A DNA stretch of 12,588 nt from a virus (taxonomy: Duplodnaviria; Heunggongvirae; Uroviricota; Caudoviricetes): the IMG/VR virus record IMGVR_UViG_2548876944_000014. One strand, 5' to 3'. Positions 1 to 10,915 of this stretch are shown in pieces (positions within the stretch are counted from its first letter, which is position 1; each line of letters begins with the position of its first letter). The position numbers and the translations under genes are program-made. Below the pieces are notes generated by a model. The model saw only the letters and a list, made by a program, of their open reading frames with translations, did not search any database and had not been told where the DNA came from.

Positions 1-2
1 TA

Positions 3-488
3 TCATGCCTGTTTTGCGACCTCATTCACTACGTCATTTTTTACCATCCGGCTGATAATCTGATTACACAAATCGTCAATAATTGACTGCACTCTGTTTA
101 CTGCCATCGGTTTAAGCCCGGCATCACGTGCCAGAATATTGGGGAGTTTTGCCAGTTCCTCGCTTACGATTTCCCCCCATATAGCCATCTCTTTTCGCAC
201 ATCATCGGCGGGTATGAGTTGCGCCGTTTCCTGTTCGAACTTGAGGCGTTCACGTTCGGACTGATACCAGGCCTTACGGTCATGTGGCTCCATTTCTTCC
301 AGTGATGCCGGAACGGGAAGATCAAGAAAACAGGTCAGAATGTCAGTCACCCGATAGAGTTTCAGCTTGTCATGCCCTCCGGCTGGCTGGATGTTTTTCA
401 GCCTTGCCGCCGCAGTCTGACGACATATTCCCGCTATCGCCGCCAGTTGATTAATGTTCAGCATCAGATTTTTCAGTTCTCGATCCAT
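3..488 (-). CDS. Putative terminase small subunit (N-terminal HTH, Nu1-like), 161 aa
   Basis: ORF track 3..575 begins at a TTG; the in-frame ATG at 488..486 is preceded by GGAG at about 5 nt spacing, so that start is preferred. N-terminus LNINQLAAIAGICRQTAAARLKN looks like a helix-turn-helix as in small terminases. Sits directly downstream of the capsid gene. Stop codon at 3..5, so the gene is complete. Confidence 0.5.
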   Translation of the reverse strand: MDRELKNLMLNINQLAAIAGICRQTAAARLKNIQPAGGHDKLKLYRVTDILTCFLDLPVPASLEEMEPHDRKAWYQSERERLKFEQETAQLIPADDVRKEMAIWGEIVSEELAKLPNILARDAGLKPMAVNRVQSIIDDLCNQIISRMVKNDVVNEVAKQA

Positions 489-641
489 ACCCGCTCCAGA
501 ATGTTTTAAACATGCATCTTGCGAACAACTTTCAGAAGAGGTCAAAAAATGCGCTATATGTTGAGCATAAAACAAGCAAAATTAACATACCAAAAATAAA
601 AATACTTAAAATTCAATACAATATGAAGATGATGATGACGA

Positions 642-726
642 ATGAAAATGCAAAAACTAGCCTTTTTCCGCGCCGCTCCCGCCCCGTGGCAGACCACTCC
701 ACCGGGAGGACCCGTAAAAAAGGCGG
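642..726. repeat. 85-bp GC-rich structured element, copy A (84/85 identical to copy B at 3177..3261)
   Basis: Direct comparison of the two stretches: a single T/C difference at position 16. Lies between the capsid stop and the terS start. Contains the inverted arms AGCCTTTTT and AAAAAGGCG around an internal CTCCCG...CGGGAG stem. Confidence 0.9.
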
Positions 727-738
727 CTGTCGCCGCCC
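716..738 (-). terminator. Rho-independent terminator after the protease-capsid gene
   Basis: On the minus strand GGCGGC-GACA-GCCGCC (perfect 6-bp GC stem) is followed by TTTTTT, 7 nt after the capsid stop codon. Overlaps the end of repeat copy A. Confidence 0.6.
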
Positions 739-744
739 TTGTTG

Positions 745-2658
745 TCATGCTCCACTCGATTTCAGTAATCCGCGATAATCGAGGGCCGCGACACCTGCAT
801 CTATGCGCACTTTCCAGGCGACACCATCAACAGTAAAGCCCACCTGCTCCTCAAGATATGGCGTATCCATACCATCAAGATAAGCGACTTCTATTGTGTC
901 CATCCCCTTAGCTGCGGCTACATACCATTCCTTGCTATTGGCCTTATCAAGACGTGGCTCAACAATTACTTCTGCCATATCTTTCACCACGTTAATGATG
1001 CCGGGGTTCTGATTGATAGTGCTCTCATCACCAACCGGAAAGACTGATGACGATGACAAAATGGCGCGACGCGCGGCAGATTCCAGCGCGGCAGGGACCA
1101 GAACAAAAGCAGGGGTAATATTCAGGGAGTCGCCGTTAGCATCCTCCTGGAGGCGCATCCGCTTACGGGCTTCATCAAGCCCCACCATGTCCATATCCTT
1201 CGCAATAAGATTTTTATGATCGGCATGGAATAACGCTTTACCATCCGTAAACTTGCCGTTGCTGGTTAACAGGAGATAAACCAGATTGCCAACTGTTCTG
1301 GCGGCTGCGCGTCCCATCGCCATGGGGATTGTAGTTAACTGGGTCAGGTCATCGTTGATAATGGCCTGACGGGTAACGGAAAAAATATTCCCGTACGTGG
1401 CCAGCGCAATAGGTACACCTTTATCGCTGGTGGTGATGTATTTATATTCCGCACCTTCCGGTACTTTATCCAGCTTTGAAAAACCATTCAGACCAACGCG
1501 CTTTGCTTCATGAAAGTTTGAAAGCGAACCGGTACGCGTCCATTTCTGGAACGTTTCGCCGCTGTCCTGCCAGCCTTTCAGTACAGATTTTTCAGCCCCA
1601 CCAGCCAGAATATGAGAAAAATCACTGCTGCTGTGTGTAAAAGCCGCATTAACAACCTGCGAGCGATTAATAAAACCGCTCACAGTGATACCACGATCAA
1701 CCAGTGATGCCTGGGCCATTTCAAAAAGGCTCATCATCGCGTAAGGGTTGCCTCGTTCAGGGCGTTCATACCCAAGACGGGAATAAAGCCCCTGACGAAT
1801 TGCATCACCTGTTATGTTTCCGTTTCCGGCATAGATATGAGGCGGGGTATTTTTATTGGATGGCGTGGACTCGCGCCCCAGCTCGTTCAACAGCTTTTCA
1901 CGGGCCATTTCCGGTGTACATGATGCATCTTCCAGACACGCCATTTTGATCCCGTCGTAACGACTGCCGAACAGGCTAAACACTTCACTTATTCCATTGA
2001 TGCGCTTCTGTTCATTACCAGCAATATTTGCCGCTCCCTGTGGCGGTGTAATCATTCCTTTAATGGTTTCCGGCATATGTAAAAAATCTCCTGTGCGTTT
2101 CGATTCAATTCGCGCCATTGCTCTGACGGATGGCAACAATTCATCAGCAAAACCGTGCTTAAGGCATTCTTTCCCATCCATCCAGGTTTCATCCTCCAGC
2201 ATGGCGGTAATTTCCTGTGCTGATTTGCCCGTTTTTCTGGCATAAGCAGGGATTAACACGGTTTCCACCTTATCCAGCAAATCAGCATAATCACGCATAT
2301 CGCCAGCATTTCCGCCAGAGATCCCCCACGGTTTATGGATCATCATCATGGCGTTCTCCGGCATCACTACACGATCGCCAGCCATTGCGACCACCGAAGC
2401 CATTGAAGCCGCAACACCATCGATATAAACCGTAATGTCTGCCGGATGATTCCGTAGCAGGTTATAGATGGCGATGCCTTCAAACACATCACCACCTGGT
2501 GAATGGATCCTCAGATTGATATGTGAAACATCGCCAAGGGCTTTCAGGTCTTCCGCGAACTGCTTTGCAGTAACACCGAAGCCGCCAATCTCCTCATAGA
2601 TAGATATATCCGCCGCTCCACGAACATCCGCCGCCTTAATGGTGTACCAGCGATTCAT
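745..2658 (-). CDS. Prohead protease (ClpP-like, peptidase S14) fused to HK97-fold major capsid protein, 637 aa
   Basis: N-terminal ~180 aa has ClpP-like signatures (HSPGGDV, GVAASMASVVAMAGD, MIHKPWG). The C-terminal ~450 aa has the length and C-terminal pattern of HK97-family major capsid proteins. ATG start at 2658..2656 overlaps the TAA of the upstream small ORF (TAATG). Confidence 0.8.
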   Translation of the reverse strand: MNRWYTIKAADVRGAADISIYEEIGGFGVTAKQFAEDLKALGDVSHINLRIHSPGGDVFEGIAIYNLLRNHPADITVYIDGVAASMASVVAMAGDRVVMPENAMMMIHKPWGISGGNAGDMRDYADLLDKVETVLIPAYARKTGKSAQEITAMLEDETWMDGKECLKHGFADELLPSVRAMARIESKRTGDFLHMPETIKGMITPPQGAANIAGNEQKRINGISEVFSLFGSRYDGIKMACLEDASCTPEMAREKLLNELGRESTPSNKNTPPHIYAGNGNITGDAIRQGLYSRLGYERPERGNPYAMMSLFEMAQASLVDRGITVSGFINRSQVVNAAFTHSSSDFSHILAGGAEKSVLKGWQDSGETFQKWTRTGSLSNFHEAKRVGLNGFSKLDKVPEGAEYKYITTSDKGVPIALATYGNIFSVTRQAIINDDLTQLTTIPMAMGRAAARTVGNLVYLLLTSNGKFTDGKALFHADHKNLIAKDMDMVGLDEARKRMRLQEDANGDSLNITPAFVLVPAALESAARRAILSSSSVFPVGDESTINQNPGIINVVKDMAEVIVEPRLDKANSKEWYVAAAKGMDTIEVAYLDGMDTPYLEEQVGFTVDGVAWKVRIDAGVAALDYRGLLKSSGA

Positions 2659-2864
2659 TATTCCCCCACCGATGCAAAACCATTCTGATTAAGCCAGGTG
2701 TTTACGGCATGTCTGACAATCTGCGCCACACCTGGTAATGGTTTGTCAGGATGATGATTTATATGGTCGATCCTGTACTGCTTAAGGCGCATAACGGTCT
2801 GCGCATCCAGATGAACGGAACCACCCCTGATATCGCCCGTGTTCAGGTCATTAATACAACTCAC
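2658..2864 (-). CDS. Hypothetical small protein (68 aa), first gene of the capsid operon
   Basis: GTG start preceded by strong Shine-Dalgarno AAGAGGAAG at about 5 nt. Stop overlaps the capsid start (translational coupling). No recognisable motif. Confidence 0.45.
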   Translation of the reverse strand: MSCINDLNTGDIRGGSVHLDAQTVMRLKQYRIDHINHHPDKPLPGVAQIVRHAVNTWLNQNGFASVGE

Positions 2865-2966
2865 AGTAACTTCCTCTTACTGACTAAACTGTGCACATTA
2901 TTGATCGATAAAAGTGGTAGATAAACATATTTCTATCATAAAAATAGATTAATGAGATTCAGACAC

Positions 2967-2989
2967 AAAAAAGCCGGAGAAAATCCGGC
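2967..2989 (-). terminator. Rho-independent terminator between replication/ori module and capsid operon
   Basis: On the minus strand GCCGGA-TTTTC-TCCGGC (6-bp stem) is followed by TTTTTT. Located about 100 bp upstream of the capsid-operon start. Confidence 0.55.
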
Positions 2990-3176
2990 ATAAATATCCC
3001 GCCATCTGAACACGTTTTGACACAGGCAACTCCACCTGGCAGGTGAAAAACAGATTTATTTATATATTTCAATTAATTGCAAACTGGTCTAATGACAGGG
3101 AGAAAAAAATATTGTACAGGTGAAAACAGAAATAACTTTTAATTATCAATAAATTATCACACATGCTGCCGCCGCC

Positions 3177-3261
3177 ATGAAAATGCAAAAACCAGCCTTT
3201 TTCCGCGCCGCTCCCGCCCCGTGGCAGACCACTCCACCGGGAGGACCCGTAAAAAAGGCGG
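3177..3261. repeat. 85-bp GC-rich structured element, copy B
   Basis: 84/85 identity with 642..726. Lies between the iteron origin and the terminator at 2967..2989. Flanking sequence diverges immediately on both sides. Confidence 0.9.
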
Positions 3262-3402
3262 ATTGCTCCGGCTTCTGTTACTCGTTGCTTAAAACGGTAT
3301 GTTATCCCCGTACGGATCATCATTCCCCGCCTGTTGTTTTGGTGTGCTTCGCTGTCATAGGCTTTATCTCACAGCAGTAAATTAAAATTTTTGCGTTTTA
3401 AC

Positions 3403-3631
3403 CCTTCACCTGTTCACCTTTTGATATTTTCTCTTTTAATTCATAATGTTAAGGGGTGAACAGTTTCACAAAAACTATTCACCAACTGTTCACCACTGTT
3501 CACCCTTGAAGCTCAATAAACAATCAAAAAGGTGAACAGTGAATAGTTTGGTGAACAGTTCATAAATAACTGTTCACCCTATAATATACTGATATAAAAG
3601 ATATTTATGACAGGGTGAACAGTGGTGAACA
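3403..3631. repeat. Replication origin iteron array: nine perfect TGTTCACC / GGTGAACA octamers plus degenerate copies (P4 ori/crr type I iteron type)
   Basis: Perfect octamers at 3411, 3487, 3497, 3571 (forward) and 3455, 3531, 3550, 3614, 3624 (reverse), with AT-rich spacers (e.g. 3580..3610). Immediately downstream of the P4-alpha-like replicase gene. TGTTCACC is the type I iteron bound by P4 alpha protein, recalled from the literature. Confidence 0.75.
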
Positions 3632-3645
3632 GTTATTCCATAAGT

Positions 3646-5463
3646 TTAATTTTTGCTATCGTCATTAGTGACCGATACACATGATGGCATCCAGTCTTCT
3701 GATTCCTCCGTCAGTGTCACGTTTGAACGCAAACCGTGCTTCGTTTTCCGTTTCATATACTCCCTGCCATATTCCGCCATTGCCCCCGGCATATCTTTAC
3801 CGAAGCGCGTCAGTGTTACAGGTTTACCAAACCCATGTGCCCTCATATAAGCCAGATAGGCATGATAGAGATACCTGCGTGGGCTGAATGGCACAATTTC
3901 AGCATTACCCACTAACAGGCCATCACACATTACCGACGCCATGAGATAGCCGCAGAAGTCCACCAGCGAATCCCCCTCTCGCTTTATCGCCAGTGCTTCT
4001 TCAGATTTCTGCTGCTCATATAACAGGCGTCTGGCTTCGTCCTGGTCAGCAAACCGTGTAAGCAGATGGCGAATCACTACCGCCAGCTCACCTTCTATTT
4101 TTTCCGCCAGCATTGGATCGCGTTCGTTCTCCGGTACAACTTCCGAAAAATTGAATATCACCCGACGACGTGAGATCCCCCCGCTGCGGTCACTGAATGA
4201 CATGGCGTTATTGTTAACCGCCAGCACTACTGCCGGAATACGCGTTGAGTAGGGGGCTTTGTGTTTCGGGTCAATTGCCACCTTGTCACCGCCTGTAATG
4301 GCCTTAATCCCTGCCCCATCACCAGCGTAGCGGGTCATATCCGGCATGATAATCAGCGAAAAGCCAACCACTAACGCGCGTTCCCTTGCATCTTCCAGCG
4401 CCTTCATGCTTGCCGATACTGTGTTGGCCTTACCCGCCAGCATGGTGCAAATCTCCGCCATCACGCTTTTACCACTTCCCCCTGGACCTGTTACCTCAAT
4501 GAATAACTGCCAGTCGTACCGGTTCGCCAGCACCATGAATAAGGCAGCCAGTACGCGATCCGCCTTGCGGTCATTCTCAGCCACCGAACGGCGTAACCAC
4601 TTCCAGAAATTCGGCGCATGTGTTGCCAGCGTTTCCCCCTCTGCTGGTGGGCTGAAAGGTAATTCACTGGCAATTAACAACCAGTCGTTTTTGTTATGCT
4701 CCCGAAAATTACCTGTTCTGGTATCAAATACCCCGTTACTGAATCCAATCAGGTTACGGGCTGTATTCCCCATTACAGGCAAACTTAACTTCATGGTATC
4801 GACCGCCGATTTAATGGCGTTCTGCGAATAGCTGATCTCCGCATCAATGAAAATCTGCGCCATAGCACGCTGTAACTCTTTATCCTGAACCGGCTCCCAT
4901 ACAATGCCGTTGTAATGGTGAACAGTGTCAGAGTCGGCATGAATCGCCAGTTCACCGCCATAATGTGCCAGGAGAACTTCGCCGCGTTGACTTGCTCCCA
5001 TCTGGTTAAGCGCCAGTGATGAAGCGTTATCGTCTTTTACCCGCTCTTTTTTCTTTACAGGCAGTTCAACTACCTTTTTCTTTTCCGCCAGCTCTCCCCG
5101 CTCACGTTCCAGATATTCGCGCCAGTTCTCCCGTTTCTGGCTGTGCATTCCTTCAGGATAATAATCAGCATCCCTGACACCTGCCGCTGCCAGTTTCTGC
5201 CCGATGGTATTAACAAGCCCCGGACGCAATAACCCCGCCTGGTAGAGACGCACGCGATAGCGTCCGTCCGGTACGATTTGCAGGTTGTCCAGTTCGGCAA
5301 GTTGTTGCTCTCCAAGCCAGACAGGTGGCACGTTATCGCCAGCCAGTCGCCCGTCCTGTTCCTGCCACTGCTTCGCATGTGCCCACGCATCACTACCCGC
5401 AAAAATGATGACTTCCGTCATTTTGTCACGCGGCTGGTGTTTTAAATTTGGCGCTTTTTTCAT
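3646..5463 (-). CDS. Replication initiator, P4 alpha-like: D5_N domain plus SF3 helicase (Walker A GPGGSGKS) plus C-terminal putative iteron-binding domain, 605 aa
   Basis: Walker A GPGGSGKS, Walker B-like LIIMPD, and a D5_N-like segment (IGFSNGVFDTRTGNF). ATG at 5463 has GGAGAGAG upstream and forms an ATGA overlap with the stop of the upstream ORF; the ORF-track start at 5478 is GTG. Iterons lie directly downstream. Confidence 0.85.
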   Translation of the reverse strand: MKKAPNLKHQPRDKMTEVIIFAGSDAWAHAKQWQEQDGRLAGDNVPPVWLGEQQLAELDNLQIVPDGRYRVRLYQAGLLRPGLVNTIGQKLAAAGVRDADYYPEGMHSQKRENWREYLERERGELAEKKKVVELPVKKKERVKDDNASSLALNQMGASQRGEVLLAHYGGELAIHADSDTVHHYNGIVWEPVQDKELQRAMAQIFIDAEISYSQNAIKSAVDTMKLSLPVMGNTARNLIGFSNGVFDTRTGNFREHNKNDWLLIASELPFSPPAEGETLATHAPNFWKWLRRSVAENDRKADRVLAALFMVLANRYDWQLFIEVTGPGGSGKSVMAEICTMLAGKANTVSASMKALEDARERALVVGFSLIIMPDMTRYAGDGAGIKAITGGDKVAIDPKHKAPYSTRIPAVVLAVNNNAMSFSDRSGGISRRRVIFNFSEVVPENERDPMLAEKIEGELAVVIRHLLTRFADQDEARRLLYEQQKSEEALAIKREGDSLVDFCGYLMASVMCDGLLVGNAEIVPFSPRRYLYHAYLAYMRAHGFGKPVTLTRFGKDMPGAMAEYGREYMKRKTKHGLRSNVTLTEESEDWMPSCVSVTNDDSKN

Positions 5464-5759
5464 TTCTGCTCTCTCCACGCGGCAATCATGTTTTTCAGTT
5501 CCTGTAGTTTTTTATCCACATCCACACGTGACACATGGTTATTTCTGGAAGTCGGGATTTCCCGCCGGAATCTGCAAATAAAGATCTCCACGTTCAGCGA
5601 ACTAAGAAATGAATATCCATCACGGATAAAATAAACACGGTCAAACATCAGTTCTTTTACCGTTACTCTGTTACCGTTCTTATCCAGATAAATAGCGCCG
5701 GGGATAATTTTGTGGTGTGCATAACCGCTGGCAGTCAAGCCAGATAAATATGTTCTCAT
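5460..5759 (-). CDS. Hypothetical protein (99 aa), translationally coupled to replicase
   Basis: ATG start with GGGGA upstream; stop overlaps the replicase start (ATGA). No recognisable motif. Confidence 0.5.
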   Translation of the reverse strand: MRTYLSGLTASGYAHHKIIPGAIYLDKNGNRVTVKELMFDRVYFIRDGYSFLSSLNVEIFICRFRREIPTSRNNHVSRVDVDKKLQELKNMIAAWREQK

Positions 5760-5765
5760 GATTAT

Positions 5766-6086
5766 TTATCCCCGATTTGAATCAGTATTCGCTTTCTTTA
5801 TGGCATTTAATGCATCTGTGGCATTTTCAATGGTGCACCGTAACGAAATATCAAACCGCCCAAGCATTGCCAGTAACAAACCGATATTACCCATATCAAT
5901 GCGCATGGCCTTTTCGTCATAGTCCTCATTTTCTGACGCATGCCACATCAGGCTACCAATTGACGCAATACCCATTGATATATTGTCAGTAGCCCCATCC
6001 GCAGCGGAATAAACCTTTTTAGCAATATCATGCTCACAGTTAAAATGCGGATTAATCAGGTACTGGTAATTTGACATATCAGGCAT
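5766..6086 (-). CDS. Hypothetical acidic protein (106 aa)
   Basis: ATG at 6086..6084 overlaps the stop of the upstream 67-codon ORF by 8 nt. Same strand and operon as the replicase. No recognisable motif. Confidence 0.5.
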   Translation of the reverse strand: MPDMSNYQYLINPHFNCEHDIAKKVYSAADGATDNISMGIASIGSLMWHASENEDYDEKAMRIDMGNIGLLLAMLGRFDISLRCTIENATDALNAIKKANTDSNRG

Positions 6087-6282
6087 GGCACACCCCCTGA
6101 CGAATACGGGCGGCGAATACCATCACGCAGCCAGCCGGAGATTGCTGGCGTGCTTCCTGTTCGCTGGTGGCCTCAATGGTAATCACGCGCGGTTGTGCCG
6201 TGCTCAGGGCGATAAAACGCCAGGCGAATTTATTCAGGTCGTGCGAGTCCCGCCCTTGCGGGTGTGTGGTATGATTTCTCAT
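6079..6282 (-). CDS. Hypothetical small protein (67 aa), first gene of the replication operon
   Basis: This is the C-terminal part of the implausible 306-aa ORF-track entry. The internal ATG at 6282..6280 is preceded by GAGGT at about 7 nt (MRNH...). Overlaps the next gene. Sits just downstream of the palindromic operator region. Confidence 0.4.
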   Translation of the reverse strand: MRNHTTHPQGRDSHDLNKFAWRFIALSTAQPRVITIEATSEQEARQQSPAGCVMVFAARIRQGVCHA

Positions 6283-6378
6283 AGCTACCTCGATACGCTT
6301 TCTATCGTTGGTGGTTAGAAGCCCGGTTAGTGTTAGCGCACTGCCGGGTTTCGTCGTTTCTGCACCTTGCATCAACAA

Positions 6379-6431
6379 GGTGTTAAACACCAATTTAAGC
6401 CTAGGTGTTAAACACGTCAAGTGTTGAACAC
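6379..6431. promoter_or_regulatory. Three palindromic operator-like sites: GGTGTTAAACACC, GGTGTTAAACACG, GTGTTGAACAC
   Basis: Inverted repeats GTGTT/AACAC at 6379..6391, 6404..6416 and 6421..6431, in the roughly 200-bp divergent region between the minus-strand replication operon (start 6282) and the plus-strand RHH gene (start 6482). Confidence 0.5.
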
Positions 6432-6481
6432 TTATTTTTTTTCCTGCATACTGCATTTGTTTTTTGTAAGGGGTACACAAC

Positions 6482-6661
6482 ATGGCGACAAAAGCAGTAA
6501 ACGCAAAATCACAAACAGTTGCGGCAAGGGTTCCGCATGAAGTTATGAACAATGTTGAGGCGGTAAAAATGCCTGGTGAAAGTACAGGGCAGTTTGTAAC
6601 AGCAGCATTAAAGCGAGAAGTTGAATACCGCCAGCGTCGCAAGGCCAAAGAGCAGGAGTAA
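6482..6661 (+). CDS. Ribbon-helix-helix (Arc/CopG-like) DNA-binding protein, 59 aa; candidate repressor
   Basis: Not in the ORF track (below its 60-aa cut-off). ATG preceded by TAAGGGG. Sequence MATKAVNAKSQTVAARVPHEVMNNVEAVKMPGESTGQFVTAALKREVEYRQRRKAKEQE shows beta-strand (VAARVPHEV), helix, Gly turn, helix as in RHH folds. Followed by a second small ORF and a plus-strand terminator. Confidence 0.5.
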   Translation: MATKAVNAKSQTVAARVPHEVMNNVEAVKMPGESTGQFVTAALKREVEYRQRRKAKEQE

Positions 6662-6718
6662 CCATCACCAGCGCCGTGGTGCGGTGAACTATGGCGCACA
6701 GGGTTACAGGTATCTACG

Positions 6719-6898
6719 ATGACTGACAAATCATTAAAGAAATTATCCTCATCCAAGAAAAAACAACGCAAAAATGCGGTAAACGAACATGAACCGGAGA
6801 GATTCGCACCATGTGCGTTTATCCTTGAGAAGTACCTTAAAGAGTATTCTAGGAAAATACGCTCATTGCAGGCATGGCAGCGAATCGAGCCAGACTGA
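6719..6898 (+). CDS. Hypothetical basic small protein (59 aa)
   Basis: Open frame between the RHH gene and the plus-strand terminator. Weak ribosome-binding site; no motif. Supported mainly by the operon context. Confidence 0.25.
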   Translation: MTDKSLKKLSSSKKKQRKNAVNEHEPERFAPCAFILEKYLKEYSRKIRSLQAWQRIEPD

Positions 6899-6962
6899 TA
6901 ACATTGCCCACCAGCCAACAACCTGGTATTCTGGATATGCTCAAGTTTAGTGTTATGCCACT

Positions 6963-6990
6963 GGCGACCGCCCTTGGTCGCCTTTGTTTT
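6963..6990 (+). terminator. Rho-independent terminator for the plus-strand RHH unit
   Basis: GGCGACC-GCCCTT-GGTCGCC (perfect 7-bp stem) followed by TTTGTTTT on the plus strand. Lies between the convergent small-ORF unit and the alpA stop. Confidence 0.6.
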
Positions 6991-7007
6991 ATGTGTCATA
7001 GCCCCCC

Positions 7008-7232
7008 CTACGCTGCCTTACCTGAATTAACGCGGTCACGGCTTTGCACCCAGTCCATAACTTCGGAAAGCAACCAGCCTACAGAACGCCCCCCAAGATT
7101 ACGGCGAGACGGAAAGCCCCCTTTCTTCTCCAGTTCGTAGCGTGTAGTACGGCTGACGCCTGTTAACTTACGACATTCATCCTCACGAATTACGCGATCT
7201 GTTAGTGATTGAAATTGTGTATTTTGATTCAT
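7008..7232 (-). CDS. alpA: AlpA-family (phage Xis/AlpA-type HTH) transcriptional regulator, 74 aa
   Basis: Small HTH protein with the AlpA-like C-terminus (RSVGWLLSEVMDWVQSR). ATG with GAGGGTG Shine-Dalgarno and its own AT-rich upstream region. Typical position next to int in P4-like and PICI elements. Confidence 0.8.
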   Translation of the reverse strand: MNQNTQFQSLTDRVIREDECRKLTGVSRTTRYELEKKGGFPSRRNLGGRSVGWLLSEVMDWVQSRDRVNSGKAA

Positions 7233-7335
7233 AAAAACACCCTCGAACGTAACCGAACAAGGGCATCTTATTTACCATAGCAGTTGGTGCAACATTGGAA
7301 AAATAAACTTTATTCTAATTTATCGTTCTCCATGA

Positions 7336-8190
7336 TTAATTTTCATTAGATAACATTTTTCTTATTTTTTCTAAAGAATCGCTGCGCATTATTTTTTCTA
7401 AGAAGGGTTTTACAGTCTGAGCAATAGCAAAGGTGTCCTTTTCACCATCAGGATACAAAGATACGGCAAGCACCCCTAATGAAATTTTTCTATCTGTAGA
7501 CAACTCCCAAGATAATAAGTCAATTAATGGGATTATCTTATAATCAATAATTTTACGTCGTATGCTCTCCCAACTTCCTGCAATTGGTTTGTCTGGCTCA
7601 ACAATTGAAAGTTCACTACGCCATTTTGGTAATAGTTTTGTAAACGCTTCAATCAACTCATCATCTCTGTTATGTAGTAAGTCAACAGAAACAAGCATAT
7701 TATCTAATGTATCAGAAAGGAGATTCACTGGTTCACGCATCACAGCCCAAAACATCCCATTATCTTCTGATATTAAACTTCCAACCATCTCATTATCTAT
7801 GATGATTGGTTTATCCTTCCAATATCCTCTTTCCGCAGTCAGTTTATTAATCATTGATATATCAAACCTTGTTACAGGTTTAATTCCATCATCATAACTT
7901 AGCTCAATTAACTTCGGCTGCACTTTATGGTCATATTCTTTTTGTTTATCACAAAACCAATCGTCTTCTTTCAGCTCTCCAAATGGATCCCCGTAATTAT
8001 TATGCAACGGGTATTCAGCACCAAACATAAAACCATATTCAGGCATCTCAGAATGTTTCATTGTTAAATCATCTTGTCGCCAATATAATTGGCGAAATAG
8101 ATCTTTATCCGACAAGTTTTCTAGGCAATCATATTTGCCTAAATCAAATGACTTTGGTAAATCTTTTTTACTATTTACTTTTTTCGTCAT
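7336..8190 (-). CDS. Hypothetical protein (284 aa), AT-rich cargo gene between int and alpA; function unknown, candidate accessory/defence gene
   Basis: Long clean ORF with visibly lower GC than its neighbours. ATG overlaps the int stop (ATGA), so it is probably co-transcribed with int. Acidic, no transmembrane segment, no Walker or nuclease motif recognised. Confidence 0.6.
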   Translation of the reverse strand: MTKKVNSKKDLPKSFDLGKYDCLENLSDKDLFRQLYWRQDDLTMKHSEMPEYGFMFGAEYPLHNNYGDPFGELKEDDWFCDKQKEYDHKVQPKLIELSYDDGIKPVTRFDISMINKLTAERGYWKDKPIIIDNEMVGSLISEDNGMFWAVMREPVNLLSDTLDNMLVSVDLLHNRDDELIEAFTKLLPKWRSELSIVEPDKPIAGSWESIRRKIIDYKIIPLIDLLSWELSTDRKISLGVLAVSLYPDGEKDTFAIAQTVKPFLEKIMRSDSLEKIRKMLSNEN

Positions 8191-9407
8191 TGTATCCCTC
8201 TCAATATCACAATATTTTCATTATATCCTGCAATCATATCAAGACGCTCAACCCATAGATTCAGTGCGTCCCGTTTCGCCTGCAAATAGCGTGAATGGTT
8301 ATAGGTTTTTTGCTGACCTGGCATCTGATGCGCTGTGATGTGCTCCACGATATGCGGATCGACACCTAAATCATTCAGCATAGTTGTAAACGTGTGTCGG
8401 AAATCATGCAGCGTCCAGTGTTCCTGCTTAAGCCGCTTATGCGCATTTCGTCCATATTGCGCCACCGTGGTATCTTTTTTCAGTTCGCCGAGTAATAACC
8501 CAGTGTGTGCGTTTTGCTCCACCAGCTTCTGAATGAACGGCAAAATGCCATCAGGAATAGGTCGGAATATTGTTACCTTCGTTTTGCTGTGCTCTTTTGG
8601 CACTGTCCACAACATTTCTTTCAGATCCCATTCTTTGATCTCTGAAAGTCTGATCTCTGCCGTTCTACACCCGAACACAATTAACAAGCGCATTAACGCA
8701 CTGTAATAGGGAGCGAACACATCACCATCAATAGCGCGTAGAATTTCTTTTAGTTCGCTGTTGCTGTGCACTCTCTCGCGGATTTCTGCTCTCTTACCCA
8801 CATCAGTAACGATCAAATCGTCCAGGGCGTTGCTAAACGCGTAGCGCCGCCTGCGGCAAAACTTTAGCGCCTGTTTGCATGTCTGCATGACATGGCCCGC
8901 TGCTACTGGTGCTTTTTTTCGTACGCGGTCAAAACATGCGATCCACTGCCTTGTATCACACTTATCAAGGGGAATTGCCCCGATATGGCAAATGATGTGC
9001 TTATCCATACGCTGCACCAGCTTTATGTAATCTTTGCGGTTATCCTTCGCGTATTCCTCCAGCCAGTAGTTAATCGCTTCCTTCACCGTAACGGGTTTTA
9101 GTGCTTCTTGTACTGTGGCGCACAACTCATACCGAGGGTTTTTACCCTCAGCCAGCCATGCCCGGCACTGTGTTCGCTTTTCCCTTGCAGATTTCAGCGA
9201 CAATTCCGGGTAAGCCCCCAGCTTTAACCGCTCTGCGGCAACCTCACGGCCTCCCGTTCGGTACCGGAAATACCAGGTTAATTTGCCTCCCTTTGAGTGT
9301 TTAATCTCCAGCCCGCCCCCGTCGGAGTAAAAACGCTCTTTTTCTGCCTGGACAGCCACCAATTTTTTTAACGTTGAATCGCTCAGTTTGTTTAGTGCTT
9401 TTCCCAC
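8187..9407 (-). CDS. int: Tyrosine recombinase / integrase, P4 family (N-terminal DUF4102 arm-binding domain), 406 aa
   Basis: N-terminal DGGGL...WYFRYR...LGAYPELSLKSAREKR signature of P4-type integrases. Catalytic HDFRHTF box and C-terminal Tyr region. GTG start with AGAGGA Shine-Dalgarno. Lies at the element edge facing the chromosome. Confidence 0.9.
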   Translation of the reverse strand: MGKALNKLSDSTLKKLVAVQAEKERFYSDGGGLEIKHSKGGKLTWYFRYRTGGREVAAERLKLGAYPELSLKSAREKRTQCRAWLAEGKNPRYELCATVQEALKPVTVKEAINYWLEEYAKDNRKDYIKLVQRMDKHIICHIGAIPLDKCDTRQWIACFDRVRKKAPVAAGHVMQTCKQALKFCRRRRYAFSNALDDLIVTDVGKRAEIRERVHSNSELKEILRAIDGDVFAPYYSALMRLLIVFGCRTAEIRLSEIKEWDLKEMLWTVPKEHSKTKVTIFRPIPDGILPFIQKLVEQNAHTGLLLGELKKDTTVAQYGRNAHKRLKQEHWTLHDFRHTFTTMLNDLGVDPHIVEHITAHQMPGQQKTYNHSRYLQAKRDALNLWVERLDMIAGYNENIVILRGIQ

Positions 9408-9442
9408 TATCAGATCCTCTTTTCAGTCCTCCAGCCTCAAAA

Positions 9443-9466
9443 AACTGACCACACAACTGACCACAC
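9443..9466. repeat. Perfect tandem duplication of the 12-mer AACTGACCACAC within a C/A-rich tract upstream of int
   Basis: Read directly from the sequence (9443..9454 and 9455..9466). The surrounding roughly 150 bp is strongly C/A-biased on the plus strand. Confidence 0.7.
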
Positions 9467-9736
9467 ATTTCGCTGAAGCTCGGCAAACAACAACGAACAG
9501 CAACAAACAAGAAAGCCAATTAAATCATTGTATATCAAACACATACACAAACAATCACGAACACCCCCGAACTACAAAAAACACTAAATGAGAAAATACG
9601 GGTATTTCTCAGCCTTCACGCAGAAGGGCACCCCGAGTCGTTTGGTTGCGATGATAAATCGCAGAGGAGGATGGTAATGTCCAGCGCACGCGTTGTAAAC
9701 GAGGAAAAACGGCAGTTTTACAATCGCGTTAATAAA

Positions 9737-10129: not shown

Positions 10130-10915
10130 ATGACCGAATTTACAACTCTTCTTCAGCAAGGAAACGCCTGGTTCTTCATCCCCAGCGCCATCTTACTTGG
10201 TGCGCTTCATGGCCTGGAACCAGGGCACTCAAAAACGATGATGGCGGCGTTTATCATCGCCATCAAAGGCACCATTAAACAAGCGGTGATGCTCGGACTG
10301 GCAGCAACTATTTCGCATACCGCAGTGGTCTGGTTAATTGCCTTTGGCGGGATGGTGATCAGCAAGCGCTTTACTGCTCAATCAGCAGAACCGTGGCTCC
10401 AGCTGATTTCCGCAGTGATCATTATTGGCACCGCGTTCTGGATGTTCTGGCGTACCTGGCGCGGCGAACGCAACTGGCTGGAGAATATGCACGAGTATGA
10501 TCATGAACATCATCACCATCACGAACATGGCGAGTATCAGGATGCCCATGCACGAGCCCATGCCAATGACATTAAACGACGCTTTGATGGTAGAGAGGTC
10601 ACCAACTGGCAAATTTTGTTATTTGGCTTAACCGGTGGTCTTATCCCCTGTCCGGCAGCAATTACCGTGCTGTTGATATGCATTCAGTTGAAAGCCCTGA
10701 CACTGGGCGCAACACTGGTCGTCAGTTTCAGCATTGGCCTGGCGTTAACGCTTATCACCGTAGGCGTTGGCGCAGCAATCAGCGTTCAGCAGGTCGCAAA
10801 ACGCTGGAGCGGATTTAACACTCTCGCTAAACGCGCCCCCTATTTTTCCAGTCTGTTGATTGGCTTAGTCGGTGTGTATATGGGCGTACATGGCTTCATG
10901 GGCATAATGCGATAA
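10130..10915 (+). CDS. rcnA: Nickel/cobalt efflux transporter RcnA, 261 aa
   Basis: Multi-pass membrane protein with a central His-rich loop (HEYDHEHHHHHEHGEYQDAHARAH). Conserved position next to rcnR. Confidence 0.9.
   Translation: MTEFTTLLQQGNAWFFIPSAILLGALHGLEPGHSKTMMAAFIIAIKGTIKQAVMLGLAATISHTAVVWLIAFGGMVISKRFTAQSAEPWLQLISAVIIIGTAFWMFWRTWRGERNWLENMHEYDHEHHHHHEHGEYQDAHARAHANDIKRRFDGREVTNWQILLFGLTGGLIPCPAAITVLLICIQLKALTLGATLVVSFSIGLALTLITVGVGAAISVQQVAKRWSGFNTLAKRAPYFSSLLIGLVGVYMGVHGFMGIMR

Follow-up and report, generated by a model that had tools for sequence, protein, structure and literature searches.

The window, that is, the whole stretch of DNA analysed here, comprises 12,588 nucleotides of the virus record IMGVR_UViG_2548876944_000014. 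We propose that it very probably contains nearly the whole of a phage-inducible chromosomal island (PICI) of the classical Gram-negative kind ('Type A'), a further copy of EcCI224, which is 10,477 bp long and lies between thiM and rcnR of Escherichia coli. Genes were assigned from six-frame open reading frames (ORFs) together with Pfam and PHROG scans, and the small genes carry PGAP names. All the listed genes were intact and on the minus strand, the YlcI-family gene being the sole island gene on the plus strand. The features of the island found in the window were as follows.

3-488, minus strand: homologue of the DUF1441 small terminase (TerS), 161 aa (PF07278, E 2.2e-35; phrog_141, E 2.1e-57)
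489-641, minus strand: cosB-like spacer of cos1, from cosN to terS, both ends of which align with the cos-terS spacer of mEp460 while the middle has diverged
642-735, minus strand: cosQ and cosN of cos1, with a predicted 12-nt cohesive end, GGGCGGGAGCGG, at 673-684
745-2658, minus strand: fusion of a ClpP-like prohead protease, a scaffold-linker and a major capsid protein (MCP), 637 aa (PF00574 and PF25209)
2658-2864, minus strand: conserved 68-aa gene preceding the satellite capsid gene (phrog_4934, E 7e-34)
3016-3270, minus strand: cos2, with cosQ-cosN at 3177-3270 and the predicted cohesive end at 3208-3219, then a cosB of the cdtI/Tritos/HannyBb type and a remnant of the terS start
3411-3631, no strand: replication origin with nine exact TGTTCACC iterons and one copy with a single mismatch, in both orientations (octamer count)
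3646-5463, minus strand: primase-replicase gene pri-rep, of the helicase and origin-binding type (D5_N, DUF5906, Pox_D5)
5460-6282, minus strand: genes for a DUF4222 protein, a 106-aa hypothetical protein and an Icd-like protein (PF13973, E 1e-16; phrog_15327; PGAP)
6482-6661, plus strand: YlcI/YnfO-family gene (PGAP), 61% identical to its EcCICFT073 homologue
7008-7232, minus strand: alpA regulator with an excisionase-type helix-turn-helix (HTH) (PF05930, E 4.8e-16)
7336-8190, minus strand: DUF6387 accessory gene in the variable slot between int and alpA (PF19924, E 4.6e-31)
8187-9407, minus strand: tyrosine integrase with an arm-binding domain (PF13356, Arm-DNA-bind_3; PF00589, Phage_integrase)
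9441-9510, no strand: 70-nt block with tandem TGACCACACA arm-type repeats (direct repeat D2)
9596-9609, minus strand: int-proximal copy of the att core AGAAATACCCGTAT, the core published for EcCI224

The scans bore out a preliminary description of the window, which had reported int, alpA, a P4-alpha-like replicase with iterons, a ClpP/capsid fusion and a terS-like gene, all co-oriented, and had recognized a phage satellite that carries a terS homologue along with a capsid gene. The exact boundaries were obtained from the genome context. The first 9.7 kb of the window differed from E. coli CUVET16-819 by one mismatch, and the single island base concerned is position 7293. Left of the window edge, the CUVET16-819 sequence carries one 93-aa ORF and then thiM. 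The 14-bp core AGAAATACCCGTAT occurred in exactly two copies 10,477 bp apart, the second of them 881 bp left of the window, and about 0.9 kb of the element with the 93-aa gene thus lies beyond the window. When the flanks were joined in silico at the core, the thiM-rcnR intergenic region of K-12 was restored at 222 of 222 positions. This comparison with an uninterrupted site, which had been suggested earlier, defined both the att site and the size of the element. The span of 1-9600 originally given for the element was close to correct: the right end is the core at 9596-9609, and the left end is 881 bp past the window edge.

The right flank of the island consists of rcnR, rcnA, rcnB and yehA. 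ARAGORN detected no tRNA in the window, in agreement with the earlier remark that none is visible beside rcnR, and the integration site is a non-tRNA site. The D2 block next to int recurs inside the other island end with 87% identity (locus L001, 14196-14265 and 24441-24510), and its tandem TGACCACACA repeats are probably integrase arm sites.

EcCI224 is a reference Gram-negative PICI listed by Fillol-Salom et al. (2018, ISME J, Table S1; PMC6092414), with the same att core, the site 'frmR-thiM' (frmR = rcnR) and a length of 10.6 kb. The element was 97.5% identical at the nucleotide level to the island of E. coli Ecol_224, with 96% query coverage. Gene order, site, att core and size class are the same, and the differences are only allelic: the capsid proteins are 98% and the TerS proteins 99% identical, and the YlcI-family gene of EcCI224 is annotated as longer.

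The gene content led to the same classification. The SatelliteFinder definition (2023; PMC10085698) describes a PICI by an integrase, an alpA, merR or stl regulator, a primase-replicase, a capsid-morphogenesis gene and a small terminase. That definition treats genes for tail, holin, portal and connector as 'forbidden', and 97% of elements that possess the five components together ('Type A') occurred in E. coli (PMC10085698). The combination of int, alpA, pri-rep, one capsid gene and terS is exactly the published 'Type A' content. The integrase lies at one end beside a specific att site whose core is duplicated, and an alpA-type regulator follows downstream of int in a transcriptional arrangement that is unidirectional except for YlcI. 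A primase-replicase has its iteron origin directly 3', the PF25209 and PF00574 fusion represents capsid morphogenesis, and a DUF1441 protein follows directly after cos1, in the place expected of a small-terminase homologue or an Rpp protein beside a cos or pac site. Tail, holin, portal and head-tail adaptor or connector genes were absent. The element is thus another copy of a PICI that was catalogued in 2018, in a class formalised in 2023, and it is already known. The incremental new details are the two cosB specificities, the divergence pattern of TerS, the satellite-only coat clade and the position of the att core in a riboswitch.

The replication module consists of Pri and an adjacent origin. 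Pri was 48% identical to residues 290-771 of P4 alpha, which cover the helicase and origin-binding parts, and it is without the N-terminal primase domain of alpha. Its identity was 49% to Pri of the island EcCICFT073 and 75% to Pri of vB_KppS-Ant, a capsid-forming PICI (cf-PICI). The octamer TGTTCACC, which is labelled 'ori type 1 repeat' in the P4 annotation, was observed 10 times in the window where 0.46 occurrences were expected, and nine of these are directly 3' of pri. The region at 3411-3631 also has AT-rich stretches (84-88% AT). The iteron cluster occupies the position of P4 crr, just 3' of the replicase gene, and PICI origins are located 3' of pri-rep (PMC6092414).

EcCICFT073 is the E. 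coli PICI that has served as experimental model. It shares the order int-alpA-YlcI/Icd-DUF4222-pri-ori, a capsid gene preceded by the 68-aa gene, two cos sites, and a packaging-specificity gene directly after cos1. The Icd-like proteins are 94% identical, and its terminal 93-aa gene is 74% identical to that of the island. The two elements differ in their late genes. EcCICFT073 has a lambda-E-type coat gene and a D-type decoration gene where the island has the ClpP-MCP fusion, and RppA (c1503, 144 aa) occupies the position held in the island by the DUF1441 TerS homologue. Only EcCICFT073 has ssb and perC, and its att site and cosN differ from those of the island. Both cos sites of EcCICFT073 are functional and at neither was a phage cosB found, whereas cos2 of the island retains one of the cdtI type.

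In the island, cosQ-cosN forms a direct repeat of 94 nt (642-735 and 3177-3270) with 95% identity between the copies. The mEp460 cos region is near-identical to this repeat, which also resembles those of lambda, phi80 and EcCICFT073 cos1 (sequences in the supplement of PMC6092414). Since the cdtI and Tritos records start at window position 3219, the cohesive end GGGCGGGAGCGG was placed at 3208-3219 in cos2 and, by register, at 673-684 in cos1. The cos2 region was 92-94% identical to positions 1-204 of cdtI and Tritos and to HannyBb 44511-44744. At cos2, the next 185 nt or so downstream match the left end of cdtI, Tritos and HannyBb through the start of terS, where the likeness ends, and cos2 therefore corresponds to a nearly intact cosQ-cosN-cosB of the cdtI type minus terS. 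The segment at 3016-3176, with cosB and the first terS codons, is the footprint of a captured phage cos-terS junction from which terS was lost later. The two cos sites combine a common cosQ-cosN of the mEp460/cdtI type with the cosB of two different helper sublineages. A terminator-like hairpin (2973-2989) follows the cosB/terS remnant of cos2.

The TerS homologue showed 62-71% identity to TerS of mEp460 and of the PhiR40_1 type. A central stretch of 27 residues is identical to the phage proteins, while the sequence is diverged from about residue 105 onward, that is, in the C-terminal half, and the acidic C-terminal tail is gone. Between the mEp460-type and cdtI-type TerS proteins of phages, the N-terminal DNA-binding parts are quite different and the C-terminal halves nearly identical, so that the island protein has diverged exactly where phage TerS is invariant. 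The C-terminal part of lambda gpNu1 binds the large terminase subunit. A PDB sequence search with the island TerS returned nothing relevant, hhalign of its alignment against lambda-type TerS was not significant, and AlphaFold2 run on the single sequence gave a pLDDT of only 46. The layout, a specificity gene directly after a cos site with a helper-type cosQ-cosN and a private cosB, is of the Rpp type.

The capsid fusion scored with both of its domains (CLP_protease, E 1.7e-35; Phage_capsid_4, E 3.6e-53). The motifs of a candidate Ser85/His108/Asp156 triad are conserved, and a Pro/Ala-rich linker segment of 29 residues present in mEp460 gp05 is absent. A PDB sequence search with the fusion matched cellular ClpP only. 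Its highest identity among 1,645 matching phage records was 57%, and no phage or prophage copy that was found exceeded 58%. When one genome per species was scanned, loci with 71-79% identity turned up in seven genera, Kluyvera, Trabulsiella, Phytobacter, Yersinia, Buttiauxella, Moellerella and Rahnella. Each of these seven loci is a satellite in which terL is missing next to the capsid gene. A homologue of the 68-aa gene lies directly upstream in six of them, and the seventh locus begins too near the capsid gene. Two of these satellites are PICIs of the helper-embedded kind, sitting near codon 110 of a ClpP-MCP gene that belongs to a prophage. At loci with 58% identity or less and enough flank, portal and mostly also terL adjoin the gene, as in prophage head modules, and a few of the loci listed are without such neighbours. 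The dN/dS ratio (nonsynonymous to synonymous substitution rate) of the fusion within E. coli was 0.05-0.09, as low as that of Pri. This low ratio, together with the satellite-only clade, indicates that the capsid gene is functional and represents an old satellite-specific lineage. As far as its sequence relatives indicate, the fusion belongs to a satellite-only clade under strong constraint. The capsid cassette is present in 187 of 5,426 complete E. coli genomes, at at least three att sites.

Two side observations were made on the capsid genes. Between the same pairs of islands, dS was 0.10-0.23 for the capsid gene, 0.02-0.03 for pri and 0-0.02 for terS, and this several-fold higher value suggests that islands have exchanged the capsid gene in mosaic fashion. 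In addition, some satellites with a ClpP-MCP of their own, about 79% identical to that of the island, sit at about codon 110 of the ClpP-MCP gene of another element. The owner of the interrupted gene is another PICI in locus L007 (9219-15805) and a prophage in loci L051 and L091, and all three insertions match the published 'helper-embedded PICI' site C:CLP_protease:110.

Based on the work on EcCICFT073, we propose how the island may be mobilised. A helper phage would activate it through AlpA, Int would excise it, and Pri-Rep would replicate it from the origin 3' of pri. The helper terminase would then cut the concatemers at cos and fill helper-made, helper-sized heads, which would receive helper tails. 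The expected helpers are lambdoid phages whose head is of the ClpP-MCP type and which have a DUF1441 TerS and the cohesive end GGGCGGGAGCGG, and candidate prophages with cos-terS-terL-portal-ClpP-MCP exist in E. coli. Judged by similarity, the capsid gene and terS homologue of the island derive from such lambdoid phages of the mEp460/cdtI type. With its cdtI-type cosB, cos2 could be used directly by the TerS of that helper, and cos1, whose cosB is diverged, would be served by the island TerS homologue. The latter may act either as a true TerS that recruits the helper large terminase (TerL) or in an Rpp-like mixed oligomer with the helper TerS. One helper head would be filled by about four island units (41.9-44.4 kb): four units amount to 41.9 kb, the distance from cos2 to cos1 over four units is 44.4 kb, and helper genomes measure 42.3-47.0 kb, which makes the lengths compatible with helper-sized heads. 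The role of the fusion would most likely be co-assembly or competition with the helper coat, through interference or redirection of size or shape, and not a requirement for transfer. Deleting the capsid or decoration gene of EcCICFT073 gave no relief of interference, and the DNA packaged was of phage size.

Several points weigh against classifying and explaining the island in this way. Induction, helper range, cos use and head size are all extrapolated from EcCICFT073, an element that uses Rpp in place of a TerS homologue and a lambda-E-type capsid gene in place of a ClpP-MCP fusion. No experiment on the island or on EcCI224 was found, the latter being present in the literature found only in a supplementary table. 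With its diverged C-terminal half, the island TerS may recruit TerL itself or form Rpp-like mixed oligomers, and it gave no blastp match to RppA and no PDB match to the RppC chains. Comparing its alignment with RppA by hhalign gave a probability of 4%, limited to the N-terminal HTH motif, which is not significant. PICI capsid genes have been reported not to be required for transfer, a dispensability that fits poorly with the strong purifying selection seen on the capsid gene here. Our literature searches found no functional work on the capsid genes of E. coli PICIs.

The alternative that fared best is nevertheless one that we consider unlikely. According to it, the island has the gene content of a classical PICI, but its fusion assembles satellite-specific and possibly small shells on helper portals, with the island TerS directing packaging. 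The 68-aa gene, the fusion, the island TerS and the private cosB would together give own-coat shells on helper portals, a proposal to which we likewise assign a low probability. The fusion is a self-contained shell-building gene, the sole coat gene in mEp460-type phages. The satellite-only clade extends over seven other genera, always in a context without terL, the dN/dS is low, the 29-aa deletion falls in the linker/scaffold region, and the island has a TerS and a cosB of its own. However, the DNA packaged by EcCICFT073 was helper-sized and the deletion of its capsid or decoration gene changed nothing that was measured, PICI capsid genes are reportedly unnecessary for transfer, four island units fit a helper head, and the island has no portal or adaptor to fit a private shell to helper parts. 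If this alternative were true, the island would be an evolutionary and functional half-way stage from classical to capsid-forming PICIs. Regarding the packaging protein, the island TerS, in which the central helix is kept while the C-terminal half and acidic tail are lost, might be an Rpp-like partner in hetero-oligomers and not a stand-alone TerS. There is a mechanistic analogy in Gram-positive PICIs, the pathogenicity islands of Staphylococcus aureus (SaPIs), where TerS(S) is likewise a satellite-encoded TerS homologue with its own site and Ccm of SaPIbov5 a coat homologue. The SaPI TerS and Ccm proteins are unrelated to those of the island, SaPI TerS acts at pac and not at cos, and Ccm, unlike the island fusion, has a demonstrated size-redirecting role. 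The coat clade, the cosB sites of two sublineages and the TerS divergence could inform experimental work on helper range and on what PICI capsid genes do.

That the island is a P4-like satellite, a relative of P4 parasitising P2-type helpers, is highly improbable. The iterons have the same octamer as the P4 type 1 repeat and, like crr, are found 3' of the replicase, the helicase and origin-binding domains of alpha are shared, AlpA was 45% identical to Vis (ORF88) of P4, and the attP arms have tandem arm-type repeats, an integrase with arm-type sites being common to both elements. The preliminary description was therefore correct in calling the replication module P4-type, but kinship to P4 ends there. 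No homologue of sid, delta, psu, epsilon, cI, gop, beta or cII was found in the element (sid, delta and psu by blastp and tblastn), and the absence of Sid, Psu and Delta, the operon for capsid size and control of the helper, excludes membership among P4-like satellites. The missing epsilon and cI are the P4 genes for derepression and immunity. Int was only 22% identical to that of P4. P4 has the alpha primase domain and P2-type packaging signals, and the island has neither; its cos sites and late genes are lambdoid, of the mEp460/cdtI type.

The preliminary description had instead matched the architecture to that of a capsid-forming PICI, which builds its own small capsids, packages itself and takes only tails from a helper. 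This match failed once the exact boundaries were known, and we regard it as having next to no chance of being right. The cf-PICIs (EcCIEDL933 and vB_KppS-Ant, LR881103) share the left half int-regulator-pri with the island, the primase gene of vB_KppS-Ant being 78% identical at the nucleotide level and its protein 75%. With lengths of 15-16.5 kb, they add a separate HK97-type coat, a protease, a portal, adaptor and connectors, HNH, terS and terL. The island does encode a coat protein with a built-in maturation protease, as one fusion, and a terS homologue; the lineage of this fusion is unlike that of the cf-PICI coat. For a tblastn search of the whole element, the queries were 21 mEp460 proteins of structure and lysis and 12 vB_KppS-Ant proteins. 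From the mEp460 set only terS and the ClpP-MCP gave matches, and from the vB_KppS-Ant set only int, the regulator (alpA) and pri, so that the cf-PICI coat protein was unmatched. Portal, terL, adaptor, connector, HNH, decoration, tail and lysis genes were not found in the element even as fragments (tblastn chance matches had E > 0.18), nor did the Pfam and PHROG scans detect an HNH or large-terminase domain. The leftward extension that had been suggested as a place to look for portal, terL and connectors yielded one 93-aa ORF, then attL and thiM. Portal, terL, HNH and head-tail adaptor and connector genes are the hallmark of cf-PICIs, the PICI model lists them as 'forbidden', and their absence here means that the island is not a capsid-forming PICI. 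The completed element has already refuted that reading, and only a second island providing portal and terL in trans could rescue it. The corrective value of this result is that one capsid gene and terS beside int-alpA-pri are normal for E. coli PICIs and are not evidence for a cf-PICI. As a side observation, LR881103.1 ('Escherichia phage vB_KppS-Ant', 16,548 bp) is a phage deposit from an induced lysate whose genes are those expected of a cf-PICI, namely int, regulator, primase, coat, protease, portal, connectors, terS and terL, its sole tail-type gene being labelled tape measure.

The ordinary prophage that had been named as the alternative, with tail and lysis genes upstream, was not seen, as the element ends at attL. 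A decayed prophage remnant with no life cycle of its own can practically be dismissed: phage-derived cos, terS and capsid sequences are present, including the truncated cdtI-type terS start at cos2, but every gene is intact and evolves under purifying selection, att is precisely duplicated and the empty site is perfect, the same compact architecture recurs at several att sites in the 187 genomes, a replicon and an integrase are present, and mobilisation of the PICI family has been shown experimentally.

Some minor observations concern the remaining genes of the island. PADLOC assigned no defence family to the DUF6387 gene or to the small ORFs. Close relatives of the island have an extra HEPN-domain gene listed under the match, which suggests variable accessory or defence cargo. 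An ORF of 306 aa at 6079-6999 on the minus strand was rejected as a gene, because only its last 67 codons represent the Icd-like gene and the remainder overlaps the plus-strand YlcI. On the window, Rfam gave only sub-threshold matches, namely a spurious long non-coding RNA and a SymR-like match at 6283-6355 on the plus strand (32.8 versus 61 bits, E 0.005). The latter lies directly upstream of the Icd-like gene and antisense to its start, and could represent either a small regulatory RNA or chance. Promoter and terminator scans of the window were of little use, as they gave fewer promoter-like sites than shuffled sequence.

The att core lies within the aptamer of the thiM thiamine pyrophosphate (TPP) riboswitch (RF00059; 71.2 bits in K-12). 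The riboswitch/att region corresponds to 9596-9645 of the window, 14072-14132 of L001 and 1837-1933 of the K-12 locus L005. Insertion of the island cuts the aptamer in two. At the thiM-side junction only its 3' half is left, with 33.3 bits, which is below the threshold of 54.3 bits, and with P1 and P2 broken, while the 5' half, together with a promoter-like site (9699-9671), points toward int after integration. The thiMD genes are downstream of the island in the same orientation. Behind the last gene of the island there is a hairpin, and the promoter and terminator scan found no consensus promoter between it and thiMD. Insertion into the thiM riboswitch may alter host control of the thiamine genes. 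On the other side of the island, rcnA (10130-10915) is 786 bp long, compared with 825 bp in CUVET16-819 and K-12, and the difference starts near 10427, which indicates that the window comes from a strain other than CUVET16-819.

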